NCBI GenBank assembly: GCA_963789715.1
Contig: CAWBLQ010000003.1
Location: 523,916-587,915 of the forward strand
Length of the DNA: 64,000 nt
Direction: 5' to 3'
From: Candidatus Binataceae bacterium
GTDB lineage: Bacteria; Desulfobacterota; Binatia; Binatales; Binataceae
The notes under the pieces are model-generated. The model was not told the DNA's origin. It searched no databases and saw only the letters and a list, made by a program, of their open reading frames with translations. The translations under genes and the position numbers were made by a program. Shown piece after piece: positions 2,514 through 40,891 of this stretch; the first letter of the stretch is position 1; each line of letters begins with the position of its first letter.

Positions 2514-3902
2514 CTATCGCGGCGGCGCGAGCACCGTCATCACCGTGCGCGTCGTCGCCTCGCCATCCAGAAACGCCAGCCATCGCCCCCTCAGCGACCA
2601 ACTCATCGTGACGGTGCCGCGCGCCGGACCTTCGGCCAACAGAAAGGCACTATCGTAGCGCAGCGAATAGGTGACGATTTTGCGCCACGGCACCGCCATG
2701 CTCGGCGCATAGATTTGCATCGCGGCTTCGTCCGCACCCTTCGAATAGGCCATCGTGCTCTGCGCGAGCATTTCCGGCCAGGTGTCAAAGCCGAGCGCTT
2801 TCACGTCAGTCCGGTCCTGTTCGGATTGCGCTATTGCGACTTGCGCGGGCACCGTCGCTTCGGGACGATCGATCGCCTGCTTGAATGAGAGCTCCCGATT
2901 GCCGAGCGTGACCGTGTCGCTGCCGGCCGCGAACGAGGCTGCGCCCGTCGATACGCCCATAAGGTGTTCTGCGCCAGTCGCGATGTTGTACTTGAATACG
3001 CCGATCGTGCGGCGCGAGGGGTCGGGCCCCACGTACAGGAATGAGCCTTCGTCGTCCGCGTCCCAATCGAGTACGTGAATCGGCTGGCGCACGTGAAACC
3101 TGGTGCAGGTGGAGTTGCGCCGATCGATAATTACCGGCGGAGCGCCCGCGTCGCCCTGGCCGACTGCGTAGACACCGTGCGCGCTCCAACTGAGCGCCGA
3201 CATCGGGCATGAGAGCTTCAGCGGCGCGACGGAACTGGCGCCGGTGATGACGATCAACTGCAAGCCGTCCGCCGGAGTCGGCGGCGGCTCGACGTCAGCC
3301 TGATCTGGATCGGATTTCGGAGTTTCGTTGACGGTGGAATCCCCGGGTGGTTCGGGATGCTGCCGCAGCGCGAGCGCGATCGTTGCGTTGTTCAGCCAGC
3401 TCATCGAGATGGAATCGTAGCGGCCGTTGAAGCTCTGAATCACGTTGCCGGGGCCGGTGGCGATCAGGTCGCGAACGATCACATCGACGCGATTGCCACC
3501 CGGCGCGATCATTGCGGTCGCGAGCGTCAGTCCGTTGGGGCTCGCGGCGAGATCCGCGATAGTTCCCTCCTCGGCTGCGCCCGGCCCCGCCTCCGCAGCG
3601 AGGATTCGCCCGGTCCGCCACCCGGTACCTCCGAGGCCGTACATAATCGTGTGCCCAGCCTGGGTTCCGACGACGCCAATCTCTTCGCCTTCCTCGAGCC
3701 AGATGGGGGGGCGCGTCGCAATCGGCGCGAAGCCATCGGGCATCTCGACGTTGGTCAGCACCTTGATGCCGTTGGTGACGTCGATGGTAGTCGAATGCGC
3801 GACGAACGGAGGCGGCCCGGGCTTGGGCGCGGTCGCGGTCGAGCATGACGCAACGCTCACGACACTGAACGCAAGAATCAAGATGAAGACAGACCTGGGC
3901 AT
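2514..3902 (-). CDS. Hypothetical lipoprotein (signal peptide followed by Cys)
   Basis: N-terminus MPRSVFILILAFSVVSVASCSTA has lipobox-like features. No recognisable catalytic motif. Confidence 0.5.
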   Translation of the reverse strand: MPRSVFILILAFSVVSVASCSTATAPKPGPPPFVAHSTTIDVTNGIKVLTNVEMPDGFAPIATRPPIWLEEGEEIGVVGTQAGHTIMYGLGGTGWRTGRILAAEAGPGAAEEGTIADLAASPNGLTLATAMIAPGGNRVDVIVRDLIATGPGNVIQSFNGRYDSISMSWLNNATIALALRQHPEPPGDSTVNETPKSDPDQADVEPPPTPADGLQLIVITGASSVAPLKLSCPMSALSWSAHGVYAVGQGDAGAPPVIIDRRNSTCTRFHVRQPIHVLDWDADDEGSFLYVGPDPSRRTIGVFKYNIATGAEHLMGVSTGAASFAAGSDTVTLGNRELSFKQAIDRPEATVPAQVAIAQSEQDRTDVKALGFDTWPEMLAQSTMAYSKGADEAAMQIYAPSMAVPWRKIVTYSLRYDSAFLLAEGPARGTVTMSWSLRGRWLAFLDGEATTRTVMTVLAPPR

Positions 3903-3963
3903 CGAAAAGCGGTAGTGTATGTAGTGTATTTGGAGCGGCCAAAAAAGGCGACCGATTCATCCG

Positions 3964-5781
3964 ATGAAGAACCCGTTTTTTGAACGATGGTGGATAAGCC
4001 GCGAGGCTCGGCTCGCGATCATTGTCGCGGTCTTGAGCGCGATTGGCGCGGTTGCGTGCGCGGCCGGCGACTGGAAGGCGGGAATCACCTGCCTCGGAGC
4101 CGCGGCGGCTATTGTCGCGGCGTTCTGGTTGGCGGTCGTCAGACCCGCGCGAATCCCGCATGGCGCCGTCGTGGTAGTTCGCCTGGCGGGTCCGATCGAA
4201 GAGGAGACGACTCGCTCGCCGCTCGATCAGCTCATGCGCCGCGGCGCGAATAGCCTCGACCATCTACGCTACGCGTTGGAGGCGGCCGCCGTTGACGCCG
4301 ACGTTCGTGCGATCGTGGTCGAGATCGCGAGCTTCGGCGCGGGCCTTGCCACCGCGCACGAAATCCACCGCCTGATGCGCGCCGCGCAGGCCGGCGGCAA
4401 GCGGGTGATCGCGCTGCTGCGAGGCGACGGCGCGGGCCTGCGCGAGTACCTGGTCGCGGCGGGAGCGGGAGAGATCGCCGCCAATCCCGACACGATGCTC
4501 ACGATGCTCGGCGTCGCGACCGGCGGCGTTTTTCTGAAGAACGCGCTCGACAAGCTGAAGATCCAGGCGCAAACGCTGCAATGGAAAGAGTACAAGGGCG
4601 CCGCCGAGACGCTCGGGCGCGACGCGATGTCGCCGGCGGTGCGCGAGAGCATGGAGGCGATCGTCGCGGACTGGGAGAAAATCCTGGTCGAGGCGATCGC
4701 GGCGGCGCGGAAGATGACGGCGGAGCGCGCGCGCGAGCTGATCGCGGCGGGATTCGTCAGTGCGAAGTTTGCCGTCGAAAATAAACTGATCGACCGCGAA
4801 GGCTACATCGAAGACATCCGTGCTGAGCTCGATCCCGAGGGCAGTCGCAAGGTGTTCGTCAGCCTGGCGCGATACCGGCGCCACGCAATCTTTACCCGCG
4901 AGCGCGGACGGCGCGCGCGGATCGCACTCGTGCACGCCAGCGGACCGGTAATTTCGGGCGAGGCGCCGGCCACCGGCGAATTTATCAGCGGCGTCGCGAC
5001 CGCGGCGCAAATCGAGCGCGCGTCGCGCGACGAACGAGTCAGCGCGATAGTGTTTCGCGTAAATTCGCCGGGCGGCTCGCCGGTCGGCTCCGACCTGGTG
5101 TGGCGGGCGGTGCGCGAGGCGCAGGGGCGCGGCAAGCCGGTCGTCGTCTCGATGGGCGATGTGGCGGGCTCGGGCGGCTACTATGTCGCGGCGGGCGCCG
5201 ACGCGATCGTAGCGGAAGCGGCGACGATCACCGGCTCCATCGGAGTCGTCTACGCGAAATTCAATCTCGGCAGTTTGCTCAACGAGCTCGGCGTCCATTT
5301 TGATTTCGTGAAAAGCGCGCCCATCAGCGACGCGATGTCGATTGCGCGGGCGATGACCGACGGCGAGCTCGCGCAGCTCAATGAAACGATCGGTCATCTC
5401 TATTCCGCGTTCACCGCCAAGGTCGCGCAAGGCCGCCGGCTCAGCGCCGAACAGGCGGAGGCGGTCGCCAAGGGGCGCGTCTGGAGCGGTCTGGCGGCGA
5501 AAGAGCGCGGACTGGTCGACGAAGTCGGCGGCCTGTCGACGGCGATCGCGATTGCGCGCAAGCGCGCGCATATCGCCGAGCATCAGCGCCACCAGCTGGT
5601 GACCTACCGCGCTGAGCGCAGATGGCTGGATTTTCGATTCGGCAGCGCGGACGCGTCGACGCCGTGGGCGATTCGCGCTGCCGCTGGCGCGCTCGGCATT
5701 CCAGGCCGCTGGGCGCCCGCGATGCTCGAGCTGCTCGTGCGCGGCGGCGTGATGCTGCTCTGTCCGTTTTTCGAGCTGTGA
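3964..5781 (+). CDS. sppA: Signal peptide peptidase SppA (protease IV, S49 family, 67K two-domain type)
   Basis: N-terminal TM segment and two ClpP/crotonase-like halves: VVVVRLAGPIEE... and VNSPGGSPVGSD...VVVSMGDVAGSGGYYVA. Confidence 0.85.
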   Translation: MKNPFFERWWISREARLAIIVAVLSAIGAVACAAGDWKAGITCLGAAAAIVAAFWLAVVRPARIPHGAVVVVRLAGPIEEETTRSPLDQLMRRGANSLDHLRYALEAAAVDADVRAIVVEIASFGAGLATAHEIHRLMRAAQAGGKRVIALLRGDGAGLREYLVAAGAGEIAANPDTMLTMLGVATGGVFLKNALDKLKIQAQTLQWKEYKGAAETLGRDAMSPAVRESMEAIVADWEKILVEAIAAARKMTAERARELIAAGFVSAKFAVENKLIDREGYIEDIRAELDPEGSRKVFVSLARYRRHAIFTRERGRRARIALVHASGPVISGEAPATGEFISGVATAAQIERASRDERVSAIVFRVNSPGGSPVGSDLVWRAVREAQGRGKPVVVSMGDVAGSGGYYVAAGADAIVAEAATITGSIGVVYAKFNLGSLLNELGVHFDFVKSAPISDAMSIARAMTDGELAQLNETIGHLYSAFTAKVAQGRRLSAEQAEAVAKGRVWSGLAAKERGLVDEVGGLSTAIAIARKRAHIAEHQRHQLVTYRAERRWLDFRFGSADASTPWAIRAAAGALGIPGRWAPAMLELLVRGGVMLLCPFFEL

Positions 5782-21164: not shown

Positions 21165-21812
21165 TCAGGTGCCCAGCTTGTAATCGATCACCTTGGTCAC
21201 TGATTCGACCAGCAGCTTTCCATTCCAGGTCTTCCTGGTTTCTTCCTTGACCAGGCCGCCGGGGACGTCATCCGACAACCAGTCTTTCGAGGTCGATAGC
21301 TCCGGGCCGGTCTTGACCGAGGTCTCGACCCAATGAGTCTTGATCTTGTTGCCCATCACCGTCACCTCCTCGTCGCCTTCAGTCTGCTTCACGACTTCCT
21401 GCTTCGGAGGCTTTTCCATCAGCGACTCGCTGGCGTTGCTGATTTCGCCGTTGGCAAAGAGCGTCACCTTGTCAGGCGGCATCTCGGTTTCGCTACCCTC
21501 GCCGAGATCGACCCTGGTTTCCTCGAGCACGGCCTTGTCCTGGTTGAAATCGACCAGCTTGGTGTTGATGCGCATGACCGCGGCGCCGGGCGGATGCGCC
21601 ATGGCTTCCACCACGCCGACATTGTTCTCGCGATGTTCAAAAACTTTTCGCTCGAGGGTGACATAGGTGCCGGGTTTGAAGTGAGACCATTGCTGGTATT
21701 CCGGGTTGGCCGGCTGCGGAGGATGCGAATCGTCAGCGGCCATAAGGAAGAGACTTGCGCCCAGCAGACTGGAACCCACGATTGCCGCGTAAAGTGTCGG
21801 GCGCAAGTTCAT
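21165..21812 (-). CDS. Secreted hypothetical protein (signal peptide)
   Basis: MNLRPTLYAAIVGSSLLGASLFLMAADD is an N-terminal signal peptide. No recognised motif. Confidence 0.5.
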   Translation of the reverse strand: MNLRPTLYAAIVGSSLLGASLFLMAADDSHPPQPANPEYQQWSHFKPGTYVTLERKVFEHRENNVGVVEAMAHPPGAAVMRINTKLVDFNQDKAVLEETRVDLGEGSETEMPPDKVTLFANGEISNASESLMEKPPKQEVVKQTEGDEEVTVMGNKIKTHWVETSVKTGPELSTSKDWLSDDVPGGLVKEETRKTWNGKLLVESVTKVIDYKLGT

Positions 21813-22044
21813 GGTGTAGGACCTCCCGAGTGAAGTAGGTGGAAGCAGGAAAGAGCTATACTCAAACTACGCCGAGATCCTACTGAAAGAAAATTGTCGA
21901 TGTCAACCGTAACCTACAGGATTCGGGCGCGTAGTCTAAGGTAGGTGCCGCGCTCGGTTGACAATGGAGTTTAGGAATCGTTAGATCGGAATACTTGACT
22001 GAAGGATTTCGACGACTAACCGATACAACCGGGAGTGAGTTCCC

Positions 22045-22383
22045 TTGCAGGAGGAACCGGTGGAATCCGACAAGCCCGCCATCCGGAACAAGCTTAAGGA
22101 ACGGCTTCGCGCGATCGTCGGCACGAGCGCCGGCACTATCGTGCTCGCGACCACGATACTGAGTGCGATTCCCGCCGACGCCAACGTTGCGGACAGCAAT
22201 CCGGCGGAGACTCTCCGCCAGCGCGTCGAGAAAGTCCGCCCGCAGGCCGAGGACGCGAACGCAAATCTGCAGCAGGGTGATTCGAAAATCCAGTTGGCGT
22301 GGTGGCGCAATTGGCGCAACGGCGGATGGCGCGGATGGGGTTGGCCGAACTGGCACAACTGGCGCAACTGGCGTAATTGGTAA
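22045..22383 (+). CDS. Candidate RiPP precursor or exported peptide. The C-terminal 28 residues, AWWRNWRNGGWRGWGWPNWHNWRNWRNW, carry a Trp at every third position
   Basis: The track start is TTG at 22045. An in-frame GTG at 22060 has AGGAGG 5 nt upstream and is the likelier start. After a KERLR n-region there is a hydrophobic stretch AIVGTSAGTIVLATTILSAIP and then ADA|NVA, which looks like a Sec signal peptidase site. The radical-SAM gene follows 61 bp downstream on the same strand. Confidence 0.55.
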   Translation: MQEEPVESDKPAIRNKLKERLRAIVGTSAGTIVLATTILSAIPADANVADSNPAETLRQRVEKVRPQAEDANANLQQGDSKIQLAWWRNWRNGGWRGWGWPNWHNWRNWRNW

Positions 22384-22444
22384 AATCTCAGGGGCGCGAT
22401 TCGCTGTGAGCCGGCGTGCGGCGCGGCCTCGAGCAATATTCAAG

Positions 22445-23608
22445 ATGGCTGCGGGCTATAGATGGCGAATCGCCGGGCCGCTCGAGCTTCTCGTCCTGCA
22501 GGCTACTCCGTTCTGCAATCTCGACTGCGCGTATTGCTATCTTCCGGACCGCGACTCGAAGCGCAGGATGTCCGACGCGACTCTGAATCGTGTCTTTCAA
22601 TTCGTCTTTTCAAGCGGAATCGTGGAGCGGGGCTTCACCGTGGTATGGCACGCGGGCGAGCCGATGGTCCTGCCGGTGGCCTATTACGAACGCGCGATTG
22701 AAATTGCGGCCGCGCATAACCCGGGGGGCGTGCAGGTTGGTCATTCGTTCCAGACCAACGGCGTGCTCATCGACGACGCCTGGTGCGATTTTTTCAAGCG
22801 CCGTCGCGTCAACGTCGGCGTGAGCGTTGACGGGCCGGCGTTTCTTCACGATCGCAATCGGAAAACGCGCAAGGGCGCCGCGACTCATCATCGAGTCATG
22901 CAAGGGATCCGAAAGCTGCAAAGCCGCAACGTGCCGTTTCACGTGATCTCCGTGCTCACCGCAGAGTCGCTCGACTACGCCGACGAACTGTACGATTTCT
23001 ACGTCGAGAACGAGCTCCGGGAGGTCGCGTTCAATATCGAGGAGATCGAAGGACCGCACGCCGCGTCGACGCTCGACGACGCGAGCATCGAGGATCGCTT
23101 TCGGCGCTTCATCGGCAGATTTTTCGACCTCGTCGCGCGCGACGAGTCGGCTATAAGTGTGCGCGAGTTCGACTCGATGGTGCCGATGATTCCTGGCAGC
23201 GACCGCGACGACATTGCGCTGATCCAGGAAAATGCGCCCGGCGCGATAGTCAGTATCGACTGCGAAGGCAACTTCACTTCATACTCGCCGGAACTGCTCG
23301 GCCTCAAGAGTAGTCATTACGGTGATTTTGCTATAGGCAATGTGAATACCGACACGCTCGCTTCGGCGATCAACGGCGAAAAGTTTCGCCGTATGAGTAG
23401 TGATATCGCGCACGGATTGAGTAAATGTCGCGCGACGTGTGAGTATTATAGTTTGTGCGGAGGCGGCGCGCCGGTGAATAAGTACTTTGAGAATGGCTCT
23501 TTCGATTCGACCGAGACCATGTTCTGCCGATTGAATCGCAAGGCGATCATCGATGTGATTGTCGCGAAGCTGCAACACCCGATGGGCGCGCCGACATCCG
23601 TCGCCTGA
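22445..23608 (+). CDS. Radical SAM / SPASM-domain peptide-modifying enzyme (anSME-like fold)
   Basis: QATPFCNLDCAYCYLP is the CxxxCxxC radical-SAM cluster. GEPMV matches the GGEP motif. The C-terminal CRATCEYYSLCGGGAP...FC is an SPASM auxiliary-cluster motif. Start at the ATG at 22445 (MAAGYRW). Confidence 0.85.
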   Translation: MAAGYRWRIAGPLELLVLQATPFCNLDCAYCYLPDRDSKRRMSDATLNRVFQFVFSSGIVERGFTVVWHAGEPMVLPVAYYERAIEIAAAHNPGGVQVGHSFQTNGVLIDDAWCDFFKRRRVNVGVSVDGPAFLHDRNRKTRKGAATHHRVMQGIRKLQSRNVPFHVISVLTAESLDYADELYDFYVENELREVAFNIEEIEGPHAASTLDDASIEDRFRRFIGRFFDLVARDESAISVREFDSMVPMIPGSDRDDIALIQENAPGAIVSIDCEGNFTSYSPELLGLKSSHYGDFAIGNVNTDTLASAINGEKFRRMSSDIAHGLSKCRATCEYYSLCGGGAPVNKYFENGSFDSTETMFCRLNRKAIIDVIVAKLQHPMGAPTSVA

Positions 23609-23629: not shown

Positions 23630-24235
23630 GTGAAGACATCGCCGGGTTGCCGAGTTTGCCACGCGGCGCGGTACCGCAGCCAGCTGACGATGGCTGATCG
23701 AGTGCAGGTGCTCGACTCGACCGGATGGCGGCGCGCCAGCGCGGACGAGATGGCGGCGGCATGCATCGACGAGCAAGGGCGGACGGCTGGCGATGTGTCG
23801 GTGATCGCGATACCCAAGCATTTGTTGAGGCGATGGTGGAGTCTGGCTGAGTCGGGCGACGGTGATCCGATCCATATAAAGCCGGGGTTTGAGAGCTACG
23901 CGCGCGAGATTGCCGAATATTTCAATTACAAGAGCTGGCCGTTGCCGACTGATGCCCTGATGGAGGTCGCGGTCTCCGACGATGCAACCGCGGCGCCGCA
24001 ACCTAGTCGCGCGACGCGGTTCAGCCGCGGAATCGGCACGCTGCTCGCGGTTATCAACCTCGGCGATGAGAACCTTAGGATCGTTCTGGGCGCGGAGTCC
24101 GCGCAGGTTCGCGTCATCCTCGAACCAGGCGAGGGCGTGATGCTGCCAGCTTGCGGCGTCCTCTGGAATCTTGCGACTCTTCGCGGATCAGATCTCGCGG
24201 TAACGATGCTGATTGGGCGGCTTTCGACTGACTAG
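23630..24235 (+). CDS. Hypothetical protein co-directional with and 22 nt downstream of the rSAM gene (possible cupin-like beta-barrel C-terminus)
   Basis: The C-terminal ..LGDENLRIVLGAESAQVRVILEPGEGVMLPACGVLWNL.. loosely resembles the cupin G(x)5PxG motif but has no His ligands. Start may be MADRVQ near 23690. Confidence 0.4.
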   Translation: MKTSPGCRVCHAARYRSQLTMADRVQVLDSTGWRRASADEMAAACIDEQGRTAGDVSVIAIPKHLLRRWWSLAESGDGDPIHIKPGFESYAREIAEYFNYKSWPLPTDALMEVAVSDDATAAPQPSRATRFSRGIGTLLAVINLGDENLRIVLGAESAQVRVILEPGEGVMLPACGVLWNLATLRGSDLAVTMLIGRLSTD

Positions 24236-24242
24236 TCAATCG

Positions 24243-24554
24243 CTACGGCATCGACATGCAGATTTGCAATTCGTTGACCGCGTTGTCGATGTATCCGATC
24301 GCGTTGGCCTTGTGCCCGTGATAGTCACTCGCGGCTTCGGCCTTCAGCACGTAGCGTGCGTGCTGTAGCTCGTTCAGCGCTTGTGAGATTGCAGGATGGC
24401 TGCCGGGCGGAGGTCCGGGAGGAGGACCGTAATAGCCAGTGCCTTCGGGCGGACCGTAAGGACCGCTGCTGTACGCCGGCCCCTGCGAGCACGCGGCGCA
24501 GGCTAGGAAAACCCCGAAGATAACGCCGCTGGCGAAACACAGTACTTTGACCAT
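24243..24554 (-). CDS. Small Gly/Pro/Tyr-rich lipoprotein
   Basis: MVKVLCFASGVIFGVFLACAAC is a signal peptide with lipobox. It is followed by GPYGPPEGTGYYGPPPGPPPG. Confidence 0.5.
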   Translation of the reverse strand: MVKVLCFASGVIFGVFLACAACSQGPAYSSGPYGPPEGTGYYGPPPGPPPGSHPAISQALNELQHARYVLKAEAASDYHGHKANAIGYIDNAVNELQICMSMP

Positions 24555-28294: not shown

Positions 28295-30523
28295 TTATGG
28301 CAGACAGACGGCGTGCGCAGGCTTTTGCTTGAGGCAGGCGACCAGCGGAGTCAGGACCGGGCGCGCCGCGCCGACGATCTCGGCCACGGTGTAGGCATTC
28401 GCCACCCAGACGTTGCCGGCAGCGTCGATTGCTACGCCGTCGGGGAAGTTGAAGGCTCCGATCGGAGCGAAATTGCCGGCCAGGCCGCCGCTGGAAGTCA
28501 GCTCCGTCACGCTGTCTTCGGAGTTCGTCACCCAGGCGTTGCCCTCGGCGTCGATTGCCACGAAGCCCGGACTGTCGAACCCAGCGCCAGCGGGAGCGAA
28601 ATTGCCGGCGAGGTCGCCGCTGGAGGTCACCTCTGTCACCGTGTTGCCGCCTTCGTTCGCCACCCAGGCATTCCCTCCCGCATCGATGGCCACGCCGCCC
28701 GGCCCGTCTAAGTCCGTGGAGAAAGGTTCGCCTACGATGCCGCCGCTGGAGCTCAAAATGGTCAGGCTGTTGGCGAGGATGTCCGTCACCCAGACGTTGC
28801 CGAAGGCGTCGATTGCCACGAACTGCGGCGCCTGGAAGTTGCCGGGAACGAAATTGCCGGCCAGGCTTCCGCTGGAGGTCAACTCGGTTACGCTTCTGCC
28901 GCCCAGGTTCGTCACCCAGGCGTTGTTGGCGGCGTCGATTGCCACCTGGATCGGGGACTCGAAGTTGGCGCCGCTCGGAGCGAAGTTGCCAACCAGACCG
29001 CCGCTGGAGTTCAACTCGGTCACGGTATCGCCGGAGTAGTTGGTCACCCAAACGTTGCCGTCGGCGTCGATCGCCACGCCGTTGGGTCCGCTGAAGTTGG
29101 CGCCGCTGGGAGCGAAGTTGCCGACCAGGCCGCCGCTGGAGTTCAACTCGGTCACGGTATCGCCGTGGTAGTTGGTCACCCAAACGTTGCCGGCGGCGTC
29201 GATTGCCAGGAAGCTCAACCCGTTGAAGTTGGCGCCGCTGGGATCGAAATTGAGCGCTATCTCCCAGCCGTCGGGCGCTTTGCTCAGATTGGGCGTGTAC
29301 GGCGGAGAAACGCCTTGAAGGGCAAACAGCGTAGCGACATTCGCGACGGGCTCGGTCGCCATTGCGTGTGCCGCCCCAAGCGTGGTGGCGCTGCCGCCGG
29401 TGTTGCTCAGCAGCGTGGTGCACGCGCTCGACGACGGTCCCGAACTCTCCACGCAGGCCGCCAGGATGTTGGCAATCGTATCCAGCCGCTCCAGGCCGTC
29501 GCAGTTGACCGGCGGTGAAAGGCCGGTGCAGCTCGCCTCGGTTGCGCCCTGATTGCTCCAGAAGCTCGCTGGCGCGCCGCTCACGGTGTCAACCAGATTC
29601 ACCTCCGCCTGGTTGAACGCATTGGCAAGGCCGGTCGCGTTGCTCGCGGGCGCACCGATGACCTGGCCGGTCGAGTCGGTGAACTGGGCCAGCGCCCACT
29701 CGCCCGCAACTGTCGTCTGCTCGTTGACGATGGTGCTCGTGACAATGGTGAAGATACTGCTGCATTTGCCTACCGTCGCCATCATCATCAGGCTGCTGTT
29801 GCTGCCCTGGCCGGCGTTGCCGCCCTGAGCGGTCAGATAAACCTCGTCCTGGGAGCTCTGTGCAGGACAGACCGCTTGGATAGTGAAGCGGCCGTCATCA
29901 GCGCTGGTCGTCGCGCCCAACTGGATCGCACCCGTTCCATAGCCCGTGCCTGCCAACCACATCGCCACGCTGGAGTTGGATACGGGATTGCCGCCGCTTG
30001 TTACCTGCCCGGAGAGCAACGCTTTGGGCGTTGGTGTTACGGTCGGCGTAGCGGTCGCAGTCGCCGTCGGGGTCGGGTTCTTCTGCGTGGCGCTCCCTTT
30101 TAGACCGACGGTAGCCGAGCTCGCACCGCTGGTCGCGTTACTGGTGATGCCGATGGTCCCGTCTTCGTTCTTGCCGGGTCCCTGAGGGATGAACTCAACG
30201 TTAACCTGCTGGCTCATCGAGCCCGCAATCGTGAGCGTGCCGCCCGCGGGAGAAATCGCGGGCGGGGATAGGATCACGTAGTTTTTGGCGTCGGTGGGTG
30301 CGCCGACGGTTACCTCCAACGGCAGCGTGCCTTTGTTACTGATACTGAAATGCTGGGTCTCGTTGAATTTTCCCTTGTCGATATCGACGCTGTAGCTCAA
30401 CGACTTGGGCGAGACAGAAAGTTTGCTTACTGCTGGCTTGCTGTCGGACGACGCAGCTTGAACCGACGCCGGGCGCACAAACGGGCCCAGGAAAAACAGC
30501 ACGGAGAAACTCAGAGCAGCCAT
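28295..30523 (-). CDS. Secreted NHL-repeat beta-propeller protein, paralog A (short TPTATATATPTVTPTP linker)
   Basis: Signal peptide MAALSFSVLFFLGPFVRPASVQA. Ig-like N-domain (KLSVSPKSLSYSVDIDKG...), Cys-rich middle domain, then about 9 NHL-like repeats (..AIDAAGNVWVTNY.GDTVTELNSSGGLVGNF..). Conserved C-terminal tail ..ACLKQKPAHAVCLP. Confidence 0.8.
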   Translation of the reverse strand: MAALSFSVLFFLGPFVRPASVQAASSDSKPAVSKLSVSPKSLSYSVDIDKGKFNETQHFSISNKGTLPLEVTVGAPTDAKNYVILSPPAISPAGGTLTIAGSMSQQVNVEFIPQGPGKNEDGTIGITSNATSGASSATVGLKGSATQKNPTPTATATATPTVTPTPKALLSGQVTSGGNPVSNSSVAMWLAGTGYGTGAIQLGATTSADDGRFTIQAVCPAQSSQDEVYLTAQGGNAGQGSNSSLMMMATVGKCSSIFTIVTSTIVNEQTTVAGEWALAQFTDSTGQVIGAPASNATGLANAFNQAEVNLVDTVSGAPASFWSNQGATEASCTGLSPPVNCDGLERLDTIANILAACVESSGPSSSACTTLLSNTGGSATTLGAAHAMATEPVANVATLFALQGVSPPYTPNLSKAPDGWEIALNFDPSGANFNGLSFLAIDAAGNVWVTNYHGDTVTELNSSGGLVGNFAPSGANFSGPNGVAIDADGNVWVTNYSGDTVTELNSSGGLVGNFAPSGANFESPIQVAIDAANNAWVTNLGGRSVTELTSSGSLAGNFVPGNFQAPQFVAIDAFGNVWVTDILANSLTILSSSGGIVGEPFSTDLDGPGGVAIDAGGNAWVANEGGNTVTEVTSSGDLAGNFAPAGAGFDSPGFVAIDAEGNAWVTNSEDSVTELTSSGGLAGNFAPIGAFNFPDGVAIDAAGNVWVANAYTVAEIVGAARPVLTPLVACLKQKPAHAVCLP

Positions 30524-30594
30524 TGACCTCCATTTTGAATCCGGGTTCACACTCGCATCCAATCTGCCGACGCGGTTCGATATTCCATCACGAT

Positions 30595-33045
30595 CTAGGG
30601 CAGACAGACCGCGTGCGGCGGCTTTTGTTTGAGGCATGCCATCAGCGGTGTCAGGACCGGGCGCGCCGCGCCGACGATCTCGGCCAAGCTGCTGCCGTTT
30701 CCGTTCGTCACCCAGACGTCGCCGGCGGCGTCGATTGCCACGCCTTGCGGGCCGTCGAAGGTGGCGCTGGTAGAGACGGCGTCGTCGGCAGCGAAGTTGG
30801 CGGCCAGGGCGCCGCTGGAGGTCAACTCGGTCACAGTGCCTGTACTGCCAGGACCGCCTTCGTGATTCGCCACCCAGACGTTGCCGGCGGAATCGATTGC
30901 GAGGCTGTACGGGCCGTCGAAGTTGGCGCCAATGGGAGTGAAGTTGCTGGCCGAGGCGCCGCCGGAGGTCAACTCGGTCACGCCGTCGCTAAGATTCGTC
31001 ACCCAGGCGTTGCCGGTGGCGTCGATTGCCACTCCGTCTGGGCGGTCGAAGTTGGCGCCGCTGATCGAGTTGTTGAAGTTACCCGCAAAGGCGCCGCTGG
31101 AGGTCAACTCGGTCACGCTCTTGCCGCCAAAGTTCGGCACCCAGACGTTCCCGGCAGCGTCGATTGCTACGCCTTGCGGGCCGTCGAAGTTGGCGCTTCC
31201 GGGAGCGAAGTTACCGGCAAGCGTGCCGGCGGAGGTCAACTCGGTCACGCTATTGCTGCCAAAGTTCGGCACCCAGACGTCGCCGGCGGCGTCGATTGCC
31301 ACGCTGGACGGCTCATCGATCGAACTGGTGAAGTTACCGGCCAGGGAGCCGCTGGAGGTCAATTCGGTGACGCTGGTACCGTTAGAGTTCGCCACCCAGG
31401 CGTTGCCGTCGGCGTCGATGGCCACAATTATCGGAGCGTCGAAGTTGCCGCCTCCGATGAAGTTACCCACCAAGGCGCCGCTGGAGGTCAACTCGGTCAC
31501 GCTATTGCCGGCAATGTTCGCCACCCAGGCGTTGCCGGCGGCGTCGATTGCCACGCCGAAGGGTGAGTTGAAGCTGGCGCCCATCTGATTGAAATTGAGC
31601 ACGATCTCAAAACCGTCGGGCTGAAGGCCCAGATCGGGGGTGAAAGGAGAACCGCTGTTAAGCGCAAATAGCGCAGTTACATGCGCGACGGGCTTGGTCG
31701 CCATTGCGTGCGCCGCCGCCAGCGTGGTGCTGCCGCCCGTGTTGCTCAGCAGCGTGCTACACGCGTTCGACGACGGTCCCGAACTCTCCACGCACGCGGC
31801 CAGGATGTCGGCGATCGTGTCGAGCCGGTCCAGGCCGTCGCAGTTCACCGGCCCTAGACTGCCAGTGCAGGTCGCCGCAGTCGCGCCCTCGCTACTCCAG
31901 AAGTTCGCCGGCCCGCCGCTCACGATGTCTGCCAGATTGGCCTGCGCCTGCGCGGCCGCATTGCCAATGCCGGTCGCGTTGCTCACCGGCGCACCGATGA
32001 ACTGGCCCGTCGAGTCGGTGAACTGTGCCAGCGCCCACTCGGCGGCCACTGTGGTCAACTCGTTGATCGTCACCGACGCGGGAATGGCGTTGGACATCCC
32101 GGCGACACCCATCAGACCGATTGCCGTGTTGCTCCCGGACCCGCCGTTCCCGCCAAGCGCGACGAGGTAGAGGACGGTGGGCGTAGCCGGCGGGTCGAAG
32201 CCTATCGTAAAGTTGCCACTGGAATTGGTGGTTGTGCTCGCCAGAGCTCCGGCACCGGCGCCATAAGCTGTTCCTGCTTCATAGATCGTCACCGCTGCGC
32301 CCGAGACTGGGCCGAGCCCTCCTTGCACTGTCCCCGAAAGAAAGTTGGTAGGGCTGCCGGTGGCCGTCGGCGTCGGAGTGATGCTTGGCGTAGGCGTCGC
32401 GGTTGCAGTCGCTGTGGCAGTCGCGGTCGCCGTGGCATTCGTGGTCGCCGTGGCAGTCGCGGTCGCCGTGGCAGTCGTCGTCGGCGTGGCCGTGGCACCC
32501 GTCGTCGGCGTCGCCGTGACAGTCGCTGTCGGCGTGGCAGTCAGGGTGGGGGTCGGCTTCTTCTGCGTGGCGCTGCCATGCAGATTGACGGTTGCCGAGC
32601 TCTTCCCGCTGGTCGCGTCGCTGGTGATGGATATGGTCCCGTCTACGTTCTTGCCGGGTCCGTGGGGGGTGAACACAACGTCCACGATGAGGATGTTGTT
32701 GCTGCCCTTGGCTTTGCCAGAAATCGCGGTCTCGCCGCCGCCCGACGTGATGACGTAGTCGGAGTTTGAGGGCGAATTGACGGTTACGTCCAGCGCTAAC
32801 GTCCCAGCGTTCGTGATGGTGAAATGCTTGCTCTCGGAGAATATGCCCTTGTCGATATCGACGCTGTAGCTCAGCGTCGTGGGTGAAACGGAAAGTTTGC
32901 TTACGGCCGTCTTGATGTCGGGCGACGCGTCGTCACCCGATTGCGCCAACGCCGGAAGCGCAAATGCGGTCAACAGGAACAGGAGCGAGAAACTAAGCGT
33001 GCCGATCGGCCGCGCGAACAACTTAATGCGCATCATAACCCTCAC
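30595..33045 (-). CDS. Secreted NHL-repeat beta-propeller protein, paralog B (about 70-aa Thr/Ala/Pro linker)
   Basis: Same layout as 28295-30523. Linker is TLTATPTATVTATPTTGATATPTTTATATATATATTNATATATATATATATPTPSITPTPTATGSP. Tail is ..EIVGAARPVLTPLMACLKQKPPHAVCLP. Confidence 0.8.
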   Translation of the reverse strand: MRVMMRIKLFARPIGTLSFSLLFLLTAFALPALAQSGDDASPDIKTAVSKLSVSPTTLSYSVDIDKGIFSESKHFTITNAGTLALDVTVNSPSNSDYVITSGGGETAISGKAKGSNNILIVDVVFTPHGPGKNVDGTISITSDATSGKSSATVNLHGSATQKKPTPTLTATPTATVTATPTTGATATPTTTATATATATATTNATATATATATATATPTPSITPTPTATGSPTNFLSGTVQGGLGPVSGAAVTIYEAGTAYGAGAGALASTTTNSSGNFTIGFDPPATPTVLYLVALGGNGGSGSNTAIGLMGVAGMSNAIPASVTINELTTVAAEWALAQFTDSTGQFIGAPVSNATGIGNAAAQAQANLADIVSGGPANFWSSEGATAATCTGSLGPVNCDGLDRLDTIADILAACVESSGPSSNACSTLLSNTGGSTTLAAAHAMATKPVAHVTALFALNSGSPFTPDLGLQPDGFEIVLNFNQMGASFNSPFGVAIDAAGNAWVANIAGNSVTELTSSGALVGNFIGGGNFDAPIIVAIDADGNAWVANSNGTSVTELTSSGSLAGNFTSSIDEPSSVAIDAAGDVWVPNFGSNSVTELTSAGTLAGNFAPGSANFDGPQGVAIDAAGNVWVPNFGGKSVTELTSSGAFAGNFNNSISGANFDRPDGVAIDATGNAWVTNLSDGVTELTSGGASASNFTPIGANFDGPYSLAIDSAGNVWVANHEGGPGSTGTVTELTSSGALAANFAADDAVSTSATFDGPQGVAIDAAGDVWVTNGNGSSLAEIVGAARPVLTPLMACLKQKPPHAVCLP

Positions 33046-37816: not shown

Positions 37817-40800
37817 TTGCGACGTTGGATGCGTTTCAAGTCGTTCGCGCGGTTCATAGCCATCCTGAGCTTGTTGCTCTCGTTTGTGTTGGCCGCGTCT
37901 ACGCGTCCCGCGCTGTCGCAGTCGAACGACGATTCGTCAGCTCATAACAAGACGGCCGTAAGTAAACTTTCTGTCTCGCCCAAAACGCTGACCTACAACG
38001 TCAATATCGACAAGGGTCAATTCAGCGAGACCCAGCATTTCACTATCAAGAACAACGGGACGCTGCCGTTGCTCGTAACCGTCGGCGCGCCCAGCGACGC
38101 TGAAAATTACGTGATTATATTCCCGTCCGCGATTTCACCCGTGGGCGGAACGCTCACGATTCCGGGTTCGAAAAGCCAGCAGGTGGAGGTTGAGTTCATC
38201 CCCCACGGACCCGGCAAGAACGTAGACGGGACTATCGCCGTCGGCAGTAACGCTACGAGCGGGCCAAACTCGGCGACCGTCAATTTGCACGGGAACGCCA
38301 CGCAGAAGAAGCCGACCCCGACTGCAACGGCGACGGCAACTGCGACCGCGACGACAACCGCAACCGCGACGCCTGCTACAGCGACTTCGACTGCCACAGC
38401 GACGGCCACTGCGACGGCGACAGCCACCGCGACGGTTACTCAGACGGCGACCGCAACGGCGACCGCGACGACAACCGCAACCGCGACGACAACCGCTACA
38501 GCGACTTCGACTGCCACAGCGACGGCCACTGCGACGGCGACAGCCACCGCGACGGCTACTCAGACGGCGACCGCAACCGCCACAGCAACATCGACTGCCA
38601 CGGCGACATCGACAGCCACGGCGACATCGACAGCCACGGCGACCACGACTGCCACGGCGACCGCGACGACAACCGCAACCGCGACGCCGACTGCTACAGC
38701 GACTTCGACTGCCACAGCGACAGCCACCGCGACGGCTACTCAGACGGCGACCGCAACCGCCACAGCAACATCGACTGCCACGGCGACATCGACAGCCACG
38801 GCGACCACGACTGCCACGGCGACCGCGACGACAACCGCAACCGCGACGCCGACTGCCACAGCGACGGCCACTGCGACGGCGACAGCCACCGCGACGGCTA
38901 CTCAGACGGCGACCGCAACCGCCACAGCAACATCGACTGCCACGGCGACATCGACAGCCACGGCGACATCGACAGCCACGGCGACCACGACTGCCACGGC
39001 GACATCGACAGCCACGGCGACCGCGACTGCCACGGCGACCGCGACTGCCACGGCGACCGCGACAGCCACCGCGACCGCAACCGCGACGCCTACTCCAACC
39101 CTCACTCCGACGCCGACGGCCACCGGCAGCCCTACGAACTTTCTTTCGGGGACGGTGCAAAGCGGGCCCGGCACAGGCATCCCGGTCTCGGGCGCAGCGG
39201 TGACGATCTATGAGGCAGGAACAGCTTACGGCGCCGGTGCCGGAGCTCTGGCAAGCACAACCACCAATTCCAGTGGCAACTTTACGATAGGCTTCGATCC
39301 GCCGGCTACACCCACGGTCCTCTACCTCGTCGCGCTCGGCGGGAATGCCGGGTCCGGGAGCAACACGGCGATCGGGCTGATCGGCGTAGCGGGAAAGTCC
39401 AACGCCATTCCCGCGTCGGTCACGATCAACGAGCTGACGACGGTGGCAGCCGAGTGGGGGCTGGCGCAGTTCACCGACTCGACGGGCCAGTTTATCGGTG
39501 CGCCCTCGAGCAACGCCACCGGCATTCGCAATGCGGCCGCGCAGGCGCAGGCAAATCTGGCTGACATCGTGAGCGGCGGGCCGGCGAGCTTCTGGAGTAG
39601 CGAGGGCGCGACTGCGGCAAGCTGCATTGGCAGTACAGGGCCGATCAACTGCGACGGCCTGGACCGGCTCGACACGATCGCCAACATCCTGGCCGCGTGC
39701 GTGGAGAGTTCGGGAGCGTCGTCGAACGCATGCAGCACGCTGCTGAGCAACACGGGCGGCAGCACCACGCTCGCGGCGGCGCACGTAATGGCGACCAAGC
39801 CGGTCGCGCATGTAGCTACGCTGTTCGGCCTTCTAAGCGGTTCTCCGTTCACCCCCGTTCTGGGCCTTCAGCCCGACGGCTGGGAGATCGTGCTCAATTT
39901 CGCACCGAGCGGCGCCAGCTTCAATTCTCCCTTCGGCGTGGCAATCGACGCCGGCGGCAACGCCTGGGTGGCGAACCTTGCCGGCAATAGCGTGACCGAG
40001 TTGACCTCCAGCGGCGCCTTGGTGGGTAACTTCCTCGGAGGCGCCAACTTCAACTCTCCGGTAGTTGTGGCAATCGACGCCTTGGGCGACGCTTGGGTGG
40101 CGAACGAAGGCGGTACCAGCGTCACCGAGTTGACCTCCAGCGGCGCTCTGGCCGGTAACTTCAACAACTCGATCAGCGAGCCGTCCAGCGTGGCAATCGA
40201 TTCCGCCGGCGACGTCTGGGTGCCGAACCTTGGCAGCAATAGCGTGACTGAGTTGACCTCCGGCGGCGGGTTGGCCGGTAACTTCACCAACTCGATCAGC
40301 GGAGCCAACTTCGACGGCCCGCAAGGCGTAGCAATCGACGCTGCCGGCGACGTCTGGGTGCCGAACTTTGACGGCAACAGCGTGACCGAGTTGACCTCCG
40401 GCGGTGCCCTGGCCGGTAACTTCGCTCCCAAAGGCGCCAACTTCGACCGCCCGGACGGCGTGGCAATCGACGCCGCCGGCAATGCCTGGGTGACGAATCT
40501 TAGCAACAGCGTGACCGAGTTGACCTCCAGCGGCGCCTTGGCCGGTAATTTCAACAACTCGATCAAAGGTGCCAACTTCGACGGCCCGTACGGCGTGGCA
40601 ATCGATTCCGCCGGCAACGCCTGGGTGCCGAACTTTCAAGGCAATAGCGTGACCGAGTTGACCTCCAGCGGCGCCCTGGCCGGCAACTTCGCTGCCGACG
40701 ACGCCGTCTCTACCAGCGCCACCTTCGACGGCCCGCAAGGCTTGGCAATCGACGCCGCGGGCGACGTCTGGGTAACGAACGGAGACGGCGCCGGCAGTGT

Positions 40801-40891
40801 GGCCGAGATCGTAGGCGCGGCGCGCCCGGTCCTGACGCCGCTGATGGCCTGCCTCAACCAAAAGCCGCCGCACGCAGTCTGTCTGCCGTAG
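37817..40891 (+). CDS. Secreted NHL-repeat beta-propeller protein, paralog C (island-borne, about 260-aa Thr/Ala/Ser/Pro linker)
   Basis: Signal peptide MRRWMRFKSFARFIAILSLLLSFVLAASTRPALSQS. Ig-like domain, (TA)n linker from about residue 175 to 435, Cys-rich domain, about 11 NHL-like repeats. Tail is ..EIVGAARPVLTPLMACLNQKPPHAVCLP. Confidence 0.8.
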   Translation: MRRWMRFKSFARFIAILSLLLSFVLAASTRPALSQSNDDSSAHNKTAVSKLSVSPKTLTYNVNIDKGQFSETQHFTIKNNGTLPLLVTVGAPSDAENYVIIFPSAISPVGGTLTIPGSKSQQVEVEFIPHGPGKNVDGTIAVGSNATSGPNSATVNLHGNATQKKPTPTATATATATATTTATATPATATSTATATATATATATATVTQTATATATATTTATATTTATATSTATATATATATATATATQTATATATATSTATATSTATATSTATATTTATATATTTATATPTATATSTATATATATATQTATATATATSTATATSTATATTTATATATTTATATPTATATATATATATATATQTATATATATSTATATSTATATSTATATTTATATSTATATATATATATATATATATATATATPTPTLTPTPTATGSPTNFLSGTVQSGPGTGIPVSGAAVTIYEAGTAYGAGAGALASTTTNSSGNFTIGFDPPATPTVLYLVALGGNAGSGSNTAIGLIGVAGKSNAIPASVTINELTTVAAEWGLAQFTDSTGQFIGAPSSNATGIRNAAAQAQANLADIVSGGPASFWSSEGATAASCIGSTGPINCDGLDRLDTIANILAACVESSGASSNACSTLLSNTGGSTTLAAAHVMATKPVAHVATLFGLLSGSPFTPVLGLQPDGWEIVLNFAPSGASFNSPFGVAIDAGGNAWVANLAGNSVTELTSSGALVGNFLGGANFNSPVVVAIDALGDAWVANEGGTSVTELTSSGALAGNFNNSISEPSSVAIDSAGDVWVPNLGSNSVTELTSGGGLAGNFTNSISGANFDGPQGVAIDAAGDVWVPNFDGNSVTELTSGGALAGNFAPKGANFDRPDGVAIDAAGNAWVTNLSNSVTELTSSGALAGNFNNSIKGANFDGPYGVAIDSAGNAWVPNFQGNSVTELTSSGALAGNFAADDAVSTSATFDGPQGLAIDAAGDVWVTNGDGAGSVAEIVGAARPVLTPLMACLNQKPPHAVCLP
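38320..39115 (+). repeat. About 800-bp coding tandem-repeat array (6-nt ACx-GCx units nested inside higher-order ~160-190-nt units) encoding the Thr/Ala linker of paralog C
   Basis: Blocks such as ..gcgacggctactcagacggcgaccgcaaccgccacagcaacatcgactgccacggcgacatcgacagccacggcg.. recur at least three times. The protein shows ..ATATQTATATATATSTATATSTATATSTATATTTATAT.. repeated. Confidence 0.8.

Follow-up and report, generated by a model that had tools for sequence, protein, structure and literature searches.

A divergent Trp-x-Asn triceptide precursor with a predicted export signal, encoded beside a GrrM/OscB-family maturase in Candidatus Binataceae

We analysed a stretch of 64,000 nucleotides from a Candidatus Binataceae bacterium (contig CAWBLQ010000003.1; the whole of this stretch is called the window below), in which a gene for the putative precursor of a peptide synthesized on ribosomes and then post-translationally modified (RiPP) lies next to the gene of a radical S-adenosylmethionine (rSAM) enzyme. 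The precursor gene (22060..22383, +) encodes 107 amino acids from a GTG codon, followed by the stop, and its product is laid out as VESDKPAIRNKLKERLR, AIVGTSAGTIVLATTILSAIPA, DA / NVADSNPAETLRQRVEKVRPQAEDANANLQQGDSKIQLA and WWRNWRNGGWRGWGWPNWHNWRNWRNW, where the slash marks the predicted cleavage site. The enzyme (387 aa, 22445..23608, +) is a cyclophane-forming rSAM/SPASM maturase of the GrrM/OscB family, recognised by TIGR04261 and by the Pfam models Radical_SAM and SPASM. The 64-kb window holds a single precursor-like open reading frame (ORF) and a single SPASM rSAM. Judged by the membership of its enzyme, the locus is a triceptide cluster of the OscB/GrrM type, and its precursor is new and divergent. 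Two further genes, the third gene of the operon and a divergently oriented gene for a secreted protein of 215 aa, belong to the same cluster and are described after the precursor.

The start codon was read directly from the sequence. A Shine-Dalgarno sequence, AGGAGG (22049..22054, +), precedes the GTG with a spacer of 5 nt (22055-22059); the annotated alternative is a TTG (22045-22047), in frame with the GTG at 22060 and sharing the ORF end at 22383. In 9 of 9 Binatus-clade genomes VESD or VESE is encoded from the position of the GTG codon, with GGAGGA kept upstream. The in-frame TTG is not kept in these genomes (P/L-S-G-G-T codons stand upstream in L004, L005 and L007), and several database homologues carry ATG in place of GTG (MESDKP...). 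Because of this pattern of conservation, the GTG at 22060 is probably the start and the annotated TTG at 22045 probably is not, which agrees with what a previous reading of the bare DNA (the sequence-only reading) had proposed from the ribosome-binding site.

Among the same genomes, synonymous codon differences are common throughout all segments of the precursor, and constraint is strongest on the core, where non-synonymous differences number 0.035 per codon and synonymous ones 0.128. By its substitutions the ORF is a real gene under purifying selection, which falls on both the core and the central part of the signal. Two antisense ORFs (21880-22443 and 21981-22436) were rejected as GC-rich noise, whereas the plus-strand ORF has a coding-type substitution pattern. 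A profile of the precursor family, searched against 1.84 billion proteins clustered at 50% identity, returned 284 cluster representatives at E <= 1e-3, most of them aligned over their full length including the N-terminus; as judged from these alignments, the conservation of the precursor is far above chance. The window precursor itself gave no meaningful match in NCBIfam or Pfam, and a close homologue in Candidatus Binatus sp. is named 'hypothetical protein' by NCBI. In the homologues P0022-P0026, from several metagenome-assembled genomes, the precursor ends before the core (74 aa) or enters an alternative Gly/Thr/Ala frame; these forms probably reflect frameshifts introduced when the TGG-rich repeat was assembled, not biology. 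Between the precursor and the rSAM gene, the intergenic RNA (22378-22450) folded no better than shuffled sequences (z 0.76), and a terminator scan returned one site only, within the rSAM gene, which is fewer than in shuffles; RNA folding and the terminator scan thus gave no evidence of an attenuator there.

The assignment of the maturase is firm at the level of its family. It scores 482.7 bits on TIGR04261 (cutoff 310), with residues 18-377 aligned to positions 1-362 of the 363 in the profile, its CX3CX2C motif is located at 22514, and Candidatus Binatus proteins 85-86% identical to it carry the GrrM/OscB name at NCBI. We take IPR026357 to be the InterPro counterpart of TIGR04261. Work on triceptides of the OscB/GrrM type has used heterologous co-expression; their chemistry is characterised, and we know of no biological role for them. 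OscB, among the founding three-residue cyclophane-forming enzymes, joins Trp C7 to the Cβ of Asn or Asp (i, i+2), and Phe C4 to the Cβ of Asn (PMC11002830). The W-x-N cross-link made by OscB, from Trp C7 to Asn Cβ, has been demonstrated (Nguyen et al. Nat Chem 2020, as summarised in PMC11002830).

The C-terminus of the window precursor carries this substrate motif (W-x-N/D, F-x-N) repeatedly. The core, WWRNWRNGGWRGWGWPNWHNWRNWRNW, comprises residues 81-107 (22300..22380, +), that is 27 residues and not the 28 counted in the sequence-only reading, and six W-x-N motifs, beginning at W82, W85, W95, W98, W101 and W104, fall within residues 82-106. These are the predicted sites of Trp-Asn three-residue cyclophanes. 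In alignment A6, 15 of the 16 invariant columns lie within the core. Its 27 residues include 10 Trp, 6 Arg, 1 His and 5 Gly, with no acidic residue; the C-terminal half is therefore not Gly-rich as in the TIGR04260 family, and W-x-N stands where that family has GGFxN.

This composition had previously been compared with that of membrane-active antimicrobial peptides, and the core does share with indolicidin, tritrpticin and lactoferricin a high content of Trp and Arg, a net positive charge and a short length. Those peptides, however, are eukaryotic host-defence molecules without homology to the window peptide and are not cross-linked by an rSAM enzyme, and in the window the spacing of Trp follows the W-x-N motif. 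The abundance of Trp, Arg and Asn is indolicidin-like because six W-x-N motifs match the substrate motif of the neighbouring enzyme (PMC11002830), which leaves the antimicrobial analogy unnecessary. We therefore regard a secreted, membrane-active cationic Trp/Arg peptide of the indolicidin/tritrpticin type as improbable, even though ten Trp, six Arg and one His without any acidic residue would suit it and export is probable. The W-x-N motif accounts fully for the composition. Relatives have Gly, Pro, His, Asn or Asp at the x position and in the flanks, and their whole cores can be nearly uncharged (GNWNNWGNW, WSDWNDNPW) or rich in Phe and Gly (GGFRNGG), so that cationic charge is not the conserved property. 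The cluster contains no immunity or efflux gene, and a PADLOC search with five cluster proteins returned only a generic rSAM similarity to viperins, with no specific defence model; the resemblance to antimicrobial peptides is compositional only.

Between the signal and the core lies a leader-like region (residues 42-80; 22183..22299, +). It contains the conserved helix motif ETLRQRVEKVRPQ and, directly ahead of the core, the junction IQLA. R55 (R60 in the numbering from the TTG) is nearly invariant in this region, and the helix, ..LxQRVEKVR.., recurs in related loci as ERLAAIR, ENRLSRL and ERIAEIR; an hhalign comparison aligned the leader segment with the ADIQERADRIA segment of GrrA-type precursors. 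As far as these alignments show, the precursor has an architecture of signal, leader and core. The suggestion of the sequence-only reading that this was an exported peptide rather than a leader-peptide RiPP was thus mistaken, given the conserved leader helix between signal and core. Three-residue cyclophane-forming enzymes are described as leader-dependent in the title of an article (ACS Chem Biol 2024;19:774) that is cited in PMC11851443.

With GrrA/OscA1 and GrrM/OscB (TIGR04260 and TIGR04261), the locus shares an rSAM above the family cutoff and a precursor placed immediately upstream on the same strand. Both kinds of precursor have an N-terminal hydrophobic, signal-like segment, a leader helix containing Arg and C-terminal repeats of an aromatic residue, x and Asn. 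In contrast to GrrA/OscA1, the window core consists nearly entirely of Trp-x-Asn, has just one GG and is not Gly-rich, and the window precursor goes undetected by TIGR04260. The window signal, with an n-region of 17 aa and a length of 41 aa, also differs from the short signals of cyanobacterial GrrA/OscA1. Further differences are the host phylum, Binatota, and two genes that the window clade adds and co-conserves, one for a protein with a double-stranded beta-helix (DSBH)-like fold and the other for the secreted 215-aa protein. On TIGR04260 (family cutoff 31 bits), the Binataceae relative L012 scores 19.3 bits, below the cutoff, and L025, L030, L054 and L077 pass. An hhalign comparison of the window-clade alignment (A1) with a GrrA-type alignment (A5) gave Prob 92.9 and E 3.7e-7 over 57 columns, a score that the repetitive core may inflate. 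On account of the L012 score, the hhalign match and the same genomic arrangement as in GrrA-type loci, with the precursor directly upstream of the rSAM, we place the window precursor near the GrrA/OscA1 family, as a divergent Trp-type relative and not as a member by the curated criterion. For annotation, this means that TIGR04260 misses the Trp-only precursor of the window while its maturase is recognised.

The N-terminus of the precursor has the features of an export signal. Residues 1-41 (22060..22182, +) are predicted, from rule-based features and comparison, to form a cleavable signal, in which the n-region (residues 1-17, ..IRNKLKERLR) has a net charge of +4 across the 15 residues ahead of the uncharged stretch. 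The h-region (residues 18-39, AIVGTSAGTIVLATTILSAIPA) consists of 22 uncharged residues, one more than in the previous count of 21, and its best 14-mer has a Kyte-Doolittle mean of 1.96; two of the 22 residues are Leu, and 59% are Gly, Ala, Ser or Thr. The site that follows, P-A-D-A/N, has Pro at -4 and A-x-A at -3/-1, with a predicted cut after Ala41 that would leave a product of 66 aa. The charge, the hydrophobic stretch, the Pro and A-D-A/N are thus those expected by rule of a substrate of the general secretory (Sec) pathway and signal peptidase I. The centre of the signal, ASTIVLATTIL, is invariant in 8 related Binatus-clade genomes, and the window departs from it only at AGT. Both the sequence and the conservation across the family agree with the earlier proposal of a basic n-region and an ADA/N site of the signal peptidase I type, and the mature length of about 66 aa stands as well. 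From these features, export of the precursor appears likely. With its abundance of Thr, Ser, Gly and Ala, the h-region is of no more than moderate hydrophobicity, which speaks for targeting after translation and not during it; this would give a cytoplasmic rSAM enzyme time to act before export.

The signal architecture was then compared across 80 loci around GrrM/OscB homologues in GTDB species genomes, from Binatia, Planctomycetota, Verrucomicrobiota, Alphaproteobacteria, Acidobacteriota, Myxococcota, Cyanobacteria and others. Reading the ORF immediately upstream of the rSAM gene in each of them gave 72 distinct precursors. Nearly all loci encode a precursor of 100-150 aa with a common plan: the n-region is basic and is followed by a hydrophobic stretch in which Gly, Ala, Ser and Thr abound; a small-x-small site with a Pro/Gly breaker comes next, and a conserved Arg-containing helix precedes a C-terminal aromatic-x-Asn repeat. 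A hydrophobic 14-mer with a mean Kyte-Doolittle value >= 1.5 was present in 70 of the 72 precursors, a small-x-small site in all 72 (A-x-A in 50), a net positive n-region in 64 and P or G at -3 to -7 from the site in 70; RR-x-phi-phi was found in 17. A hydrophobic N-terminus was likewise observed in 129 of the 140 best among the 284 independent clusters of the profile search, and a cyanobacterial GrrA scoring 131 bits on TIGR04260 has a match that begins at residue 1. Across the precursors compared, a signal-like N-terminus is therefore seen as a trait of the whole family, the classical cyanobacterial GrrA included. The sequence-only reading had named an outcome that would speak against a signal peptide, namely a hydrophobic segment kept as a recognition helix in homologues that lack the A-x-A site; this is not what the family shows, since the homologues keep a small-x-small site.

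Many relatives carry twin-arginine motifs directly after the start codon (MTTPDRRRFLKG, MDKLSRRSLLRA, MSAQERRDFLKT, MSGQHRRQFLKE), as in signals for twin-arginine translocation (Tat). Two of them, L025 (17.8 bits) and L030 (18.2 bits), pass the Tat signal model TIGR01409 (cutoff 16.7) and also pass TIGR04260. GrrA/OscA1-type precursors with a GGFRN-type core and a canonical twin-arginine start were found in L020, L021, L024-L032, L034-L036, L038 and L043 (Alphaproteobacteria and Planctomycetota), with starts such as DRRRFLKG, SRRSLLR, ERRDFLKT and HRRQFLKE. In the twin-arginine loci, the precursor ORF ends a short way upstream of the rSAM match (about 3500-3990 in most of them). Among the Trp-type precursors, those of L022 and L023 (Verrucomicrobiae) and P0244 have His-rich tails (..NHHKHHKHHHNDDD) or W-H-N repeats, a composition that hints at metal binding as a possible function of the exported peptides.

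The window signal resembles Tat signals (TIGR01409, PMC7317946) in its tripartite build, the length of its n-region, its Leu-poor h-region, its A-x-A site and its register with RR-bearing relatives. It differs in having R-N for R-R, and a charged K-E-R-L-R where the h-region of a Tat signal would begin. In a hand comparison of the printed sequences, counted back from the G-x-(I/L)-V-L-A block, R-N-K-L-K-E of the window falls in ungapped register with R-R-K-L-K-D of L012 (Binataceae) and R-R-R-F-L-K of L025. We considered on these grounds that the same precursor, bearing the same chemistry, might leave by Tat, with the degenerate R-N, perhaps aided by an amphipathic n-region, targeting TatBC and the pathway carrying the already cross-linked peptide. 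The register extends to SRRSLLR, relatives pass TIGR01409, and Tat is suited to cargo that matures in the cytoplasm. The 41-aa signal with its long n-region and an h-region rich in Gly, Thr, Ser and Ala with two Leu also fits the Tat type, whose h-regions have more Gly, less Leu and a lower hydrophobicity (PMC7317946). However, the twin arginines of Tat signals are nearly invariant, and conservative substitutions, even to Lys, are poorly tolerated (PMC7317946). The window reads I-R-N-K-L-K-E where the consensus has S-R-R-x-F-L-K, and its whole clade is without the second Arg (variants RN, RK, RD, HN and HQ); the second position is free to be N, K, D or Q and the first can be H, which argues against a constraint of the Tat type. 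In addition, the window peptide has no match to TIGR01409 or PF10518, and the c-region PADA/NVAD has no basic Sec-avoidance residue near the site. A search of the window with a TatA-like pattern found none, which is uninformative about the rest of the genome. We therefore judge Tat export of the window peptide unlikely. Since the R-R of relatives is R-N here, Sec is the more probable route for the window clade, and a Tat ancestry would still be visible in it. The previous description of the peptide as Sec-exported holds in so far as it concerns an export signal; the Sec route is plausible though unproven, as Tat-type relatives share the register.

The same N-terminus could instead act as an uncleaved N-in/C-out signal anchor, with a single transmembrane helix tethering the cross-linked tail and presenting it on the periplasmic face. 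The 22 uncharged residues are long enough for one membrane crossing, an n-region charged +4 agrees with the positive-inside rule, and the centre of the segment is unusually conserved across phyla, which would befit a helix with a permanent function. Against this, a Pro/Gly breaker followed by a small-x-small site (mostly P-A-x-A) is kept even in diverged sequences, in the 70 and 72 of 72 precursors counted above, relatives bear canonical cleavable Tat or short Sec-type signals, and a segment so rich in Gly, Ser and Thr looks more like a signal than an anchor. We give the anchor a little less weight than Tat export. In another alternative, which seems very improbable, there is no export: the basic and hydrophobic N-terminal helix would serve the rSAM or the operon's third protein as nothing more than a leader or recognition element, and the product would stay in the cytoplasm or be released by lysis. 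The n/h motif is indeed conserved in sequence beyond the physicochemical conservation expected of signals, and the reported leader dependence of cyclophane-forming enzymes also speaks for this reading; yet homologous precursors carry canonical Tat signals accepted by a curated model, downstream of the signal there is a separate conserved leader helix, a secreted partner is co-conserved and the small-x-small site occurs family-wide.

Considering all this evidence, we moderately favour the interpretation that the window encodes a triceptide precursor, composed of an export signal (1-41), a leader (42-80) and a 27-residue core with six W-x-N motifs, which is cross-linked and then exported, probably by Sec. 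The precursor would be made in the cytoplasm, where the moderate hydrophobicity of its h-region would allow post-translational targeting. The GrrM/OscB-type rSAM/SPASM enzyme would bind the leader and join the ring of each Trp to the β-carbon of the Asn two residues on, forming up to six three-residue cyclophanes. The modified peptide would then cross the inner membrane by a general export pathway, most probably Sec in the window clade, and signal peptidase I would cut after ADA to release a cross-linked, cationic, Trp-rich peptide of 66 residues into the periplasm or cell envelope; the secreted protein of 215 aa, co-conserved with the cluster, is a candidate for its partner there. That modification has to precede export, the rSAM being cytoplasmic, was already argued in the sequence-only reading, and we retain this reasoning. 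No peptidase or RiPP transporter was found among the neighbours in the window and in L001-L003, and this lack of a dedicated protease or transporter fits reliance on the general machinery of export and signal peptidase, which bufferins have been shown to use (PMC11626156).

Several observations weigh against the interpretation just given. The window precursor has no match to TIGR04260 at E <= 1 and none to TIGR01409, and its signal peptide was called from rule-based features and comparative evidence. The long n-region is conserved in sequence across phyla (R-x-x-L-K-x-K/R-L..L-L-K-x-G-A-G-S-L-V-L-A-S/T), which is unusual for a plain Sec signal, and the conservation of the n- and h-regions suggests a second role or another pathway. 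The 22-residue uncharged stretch could suffice as a membrane anchor, and macrocyclic peptides make poor substrates for Sec in the view of the bufferin authors (PMC11626156). The gene, its start codon, the enzyme family, the motif content, the family-wide signal architecture and the absence of a dedicated protease or transporter from the cluster are direct observations; for the Trp-type clade we infer the cross-link chemistry (from OscB homology), export, its pathway, the cleavage site and the function.

A broader proposal, which we advance tentatively and hold to be somewhat less probable than its opposite, is that GrrA/OscA-type triceptides are exported family-wide through Sec or Tat signals and that, among the relatives closest to the window, the unusually conserved n- and h-regions (R-x-x-L-K-x-K-L..L-L-K-x-G-A-G-S-L-V-L-A-T) may double as a recognition or hold-back element. 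Bound by the rSAM or by the DSBH-like protein, this element would delay export, and the peptide would afterwards act in the periplasm with the 215-aa protein. The idea parallels Tat proofreading chaperones, with export delayed until cyclophane formation is complete.

Known exported RiPPs offer points of comparison. Bufferins are Sec-exported RiPPs (PMC11626156), and their authors describe Sec signals as 'rare' in RiPP precursors, naming as other cases only cinnamycin, chryseobasin and oxazolin. The window system, on its predicted side, is like bufferins and oxazolins (MNIO RiPPs; PMC11626156, PMC12452194) in having a signal for a general pathway instead of or atop a leader, in lacking a dedicated exporter or protease, and in cytoplasmic modification before export with action in the periplasm. 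It differs from bufferins in its enzymes, an rSAM/SPASM protein as against an MNIO with a DUF2063 partner, and in its predicted products, Trp-Asn C-C cyclophanes as against Cys-derived thiooxazoles; moreover, bufferins fold as small proteins and bind copper, and only for bufferins has export been demonstrated experimentally. The HXS antiphage system has an rSAM-matured H-x-S repeat protein, HxsA, which carries a signal peptide and is periplasmic (PMC13128918). This system (HxsA, the rSAMs HxsB and HxsC, and HxsD; PMC13128918) and the window share a repeat precursor with a signal peptide and a SPASM-type rSAM accompanied by accessory cytoplasmic proteins. The similarity of the window rSAM to the HxsB model TIGR03978 is no more than distant, at 104.6 bits (E 5e-30), well short of the cutoff of 370. 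In HXS, unlike in the window, the repeat is H-x-S instead of W-x-N, HxsA has a peptidoglycan-binding domain, two rSAMs are present and cleavage is non-canonical and needs other Hxs proteins. The statement of the sequence-only reading that an exported, rSAM-cross-linked peptide would be unusual is now to be taken in relative terms, with bufferins (PMC11626156) and the HXS effector (PMC13128918) as precedents.

In the full-text literature we found no statement that triceptide precursors carry signal peptides, in a search whose scope did not include the primary triceptide papers, so that priority cannot be judged. In the searchable literature we came upon no native RiPP precursor with a Tat signal; as far as we could find, the triceptide precursors with a canonical twin arginine would be the first native Tat-targeted RiPP precursors. 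The point of most interest is family-wide, namely the presence of general-pathway, partly Tat-type, signals on rSAM-modified triceptide precursors, together with two co-conserved proteins. If the proposed interpretation is true, the supernatant or the periplasm is the place to look for native products, whose N-terminus should lie at the signal-peptidase site and not at an assumed leader-protease site, and the missing protease and transporter of minimal triceptide clusters would be explained. It would also extend Sec/Tat-dependent RiPPs beyond MNIO-modified bufferins to rSAM enzymes, and it would raise the question of how a cytoplasmic Fe-S enzyme gets time to act before export. The secreted 215-aa protein and the DSBH-like protein are concrete handles on function.

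The gene for the 215-aa protein (21165..21812, -) is divergent from the precursor and co-conserved with it: 23 loci from Binatia, Planctomycetota, Myxococcota and others have it upstream of the precursor. The protein has its own signal peptide (MNLRPTLYAAIVGSSLLGASLFLMAADD) and gave no match in Pfam, NCBIfam, PADLOC or PDB (a profile was used for PDB and Pfam); a single-sequence AlphaFold2 model is all-beta, with a confidence so low (pLDDT, the predicted local distance difference test, of 39.5) that the model is unusable. As a candidate extracytoplasmic partner, judged by its own signal and its co-conservation, it lends indirect support to an extracytoplasmic role of the peptide. A sigma-70-like promoter (TTGACA-18 nt-TAGGAT, 10/12; 21877-21906, -) lies upstream of this gene and is weak evidence, as shuffled sequences also give one match.

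The third operon gene (23630..24235, +) encodes a protein of 201 aa with a putative DSBH (2-oxoglutarate (2OG)-oxygenase-like) fold. M1, W33, K101, N143 and G145 are invariant in it; no His except H64 is near-invariant, and H64 is located in a predicted helix outside the barrel. The conserved HxD/E...H iron triad of Fe(II)/2OG oxygenases was not found in this protein, nor did phmmer find a match to it in PDB. The precursor, the rSAM and this third gene are kept together even in a distant contig.

The other neighbours are a glycerol kinase, an acetyltransferase, a nucleoside deoxyribosyltransferase-like protein and the ATP-binding protein of an ATP-binding cassette (ABC) transporter, which looks LptB-like by sequence. 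A protein of 103 aa (24243-24554, -), with a lipoprotein-like N-terminus (..VFLACAACSQG) and a segment rich in Pro, Gly and Tyr, stands beside the cluster only in the Binatia loci L001-L012. Farther along the window, three paralogous large secreted proteins of 780, 816 and 1024 aa are encoded at 28295-30637 (-), 30595-33045 (-) and 37817-40891 (+). They have an N-terminal signal, long Thr/Ala linkers (TATATA...) and NHL-type repeats (..GVAIDAAGNVWVTN..), and their off-frame translations are the source of the other Trp-rich matches in a six-frame scan.

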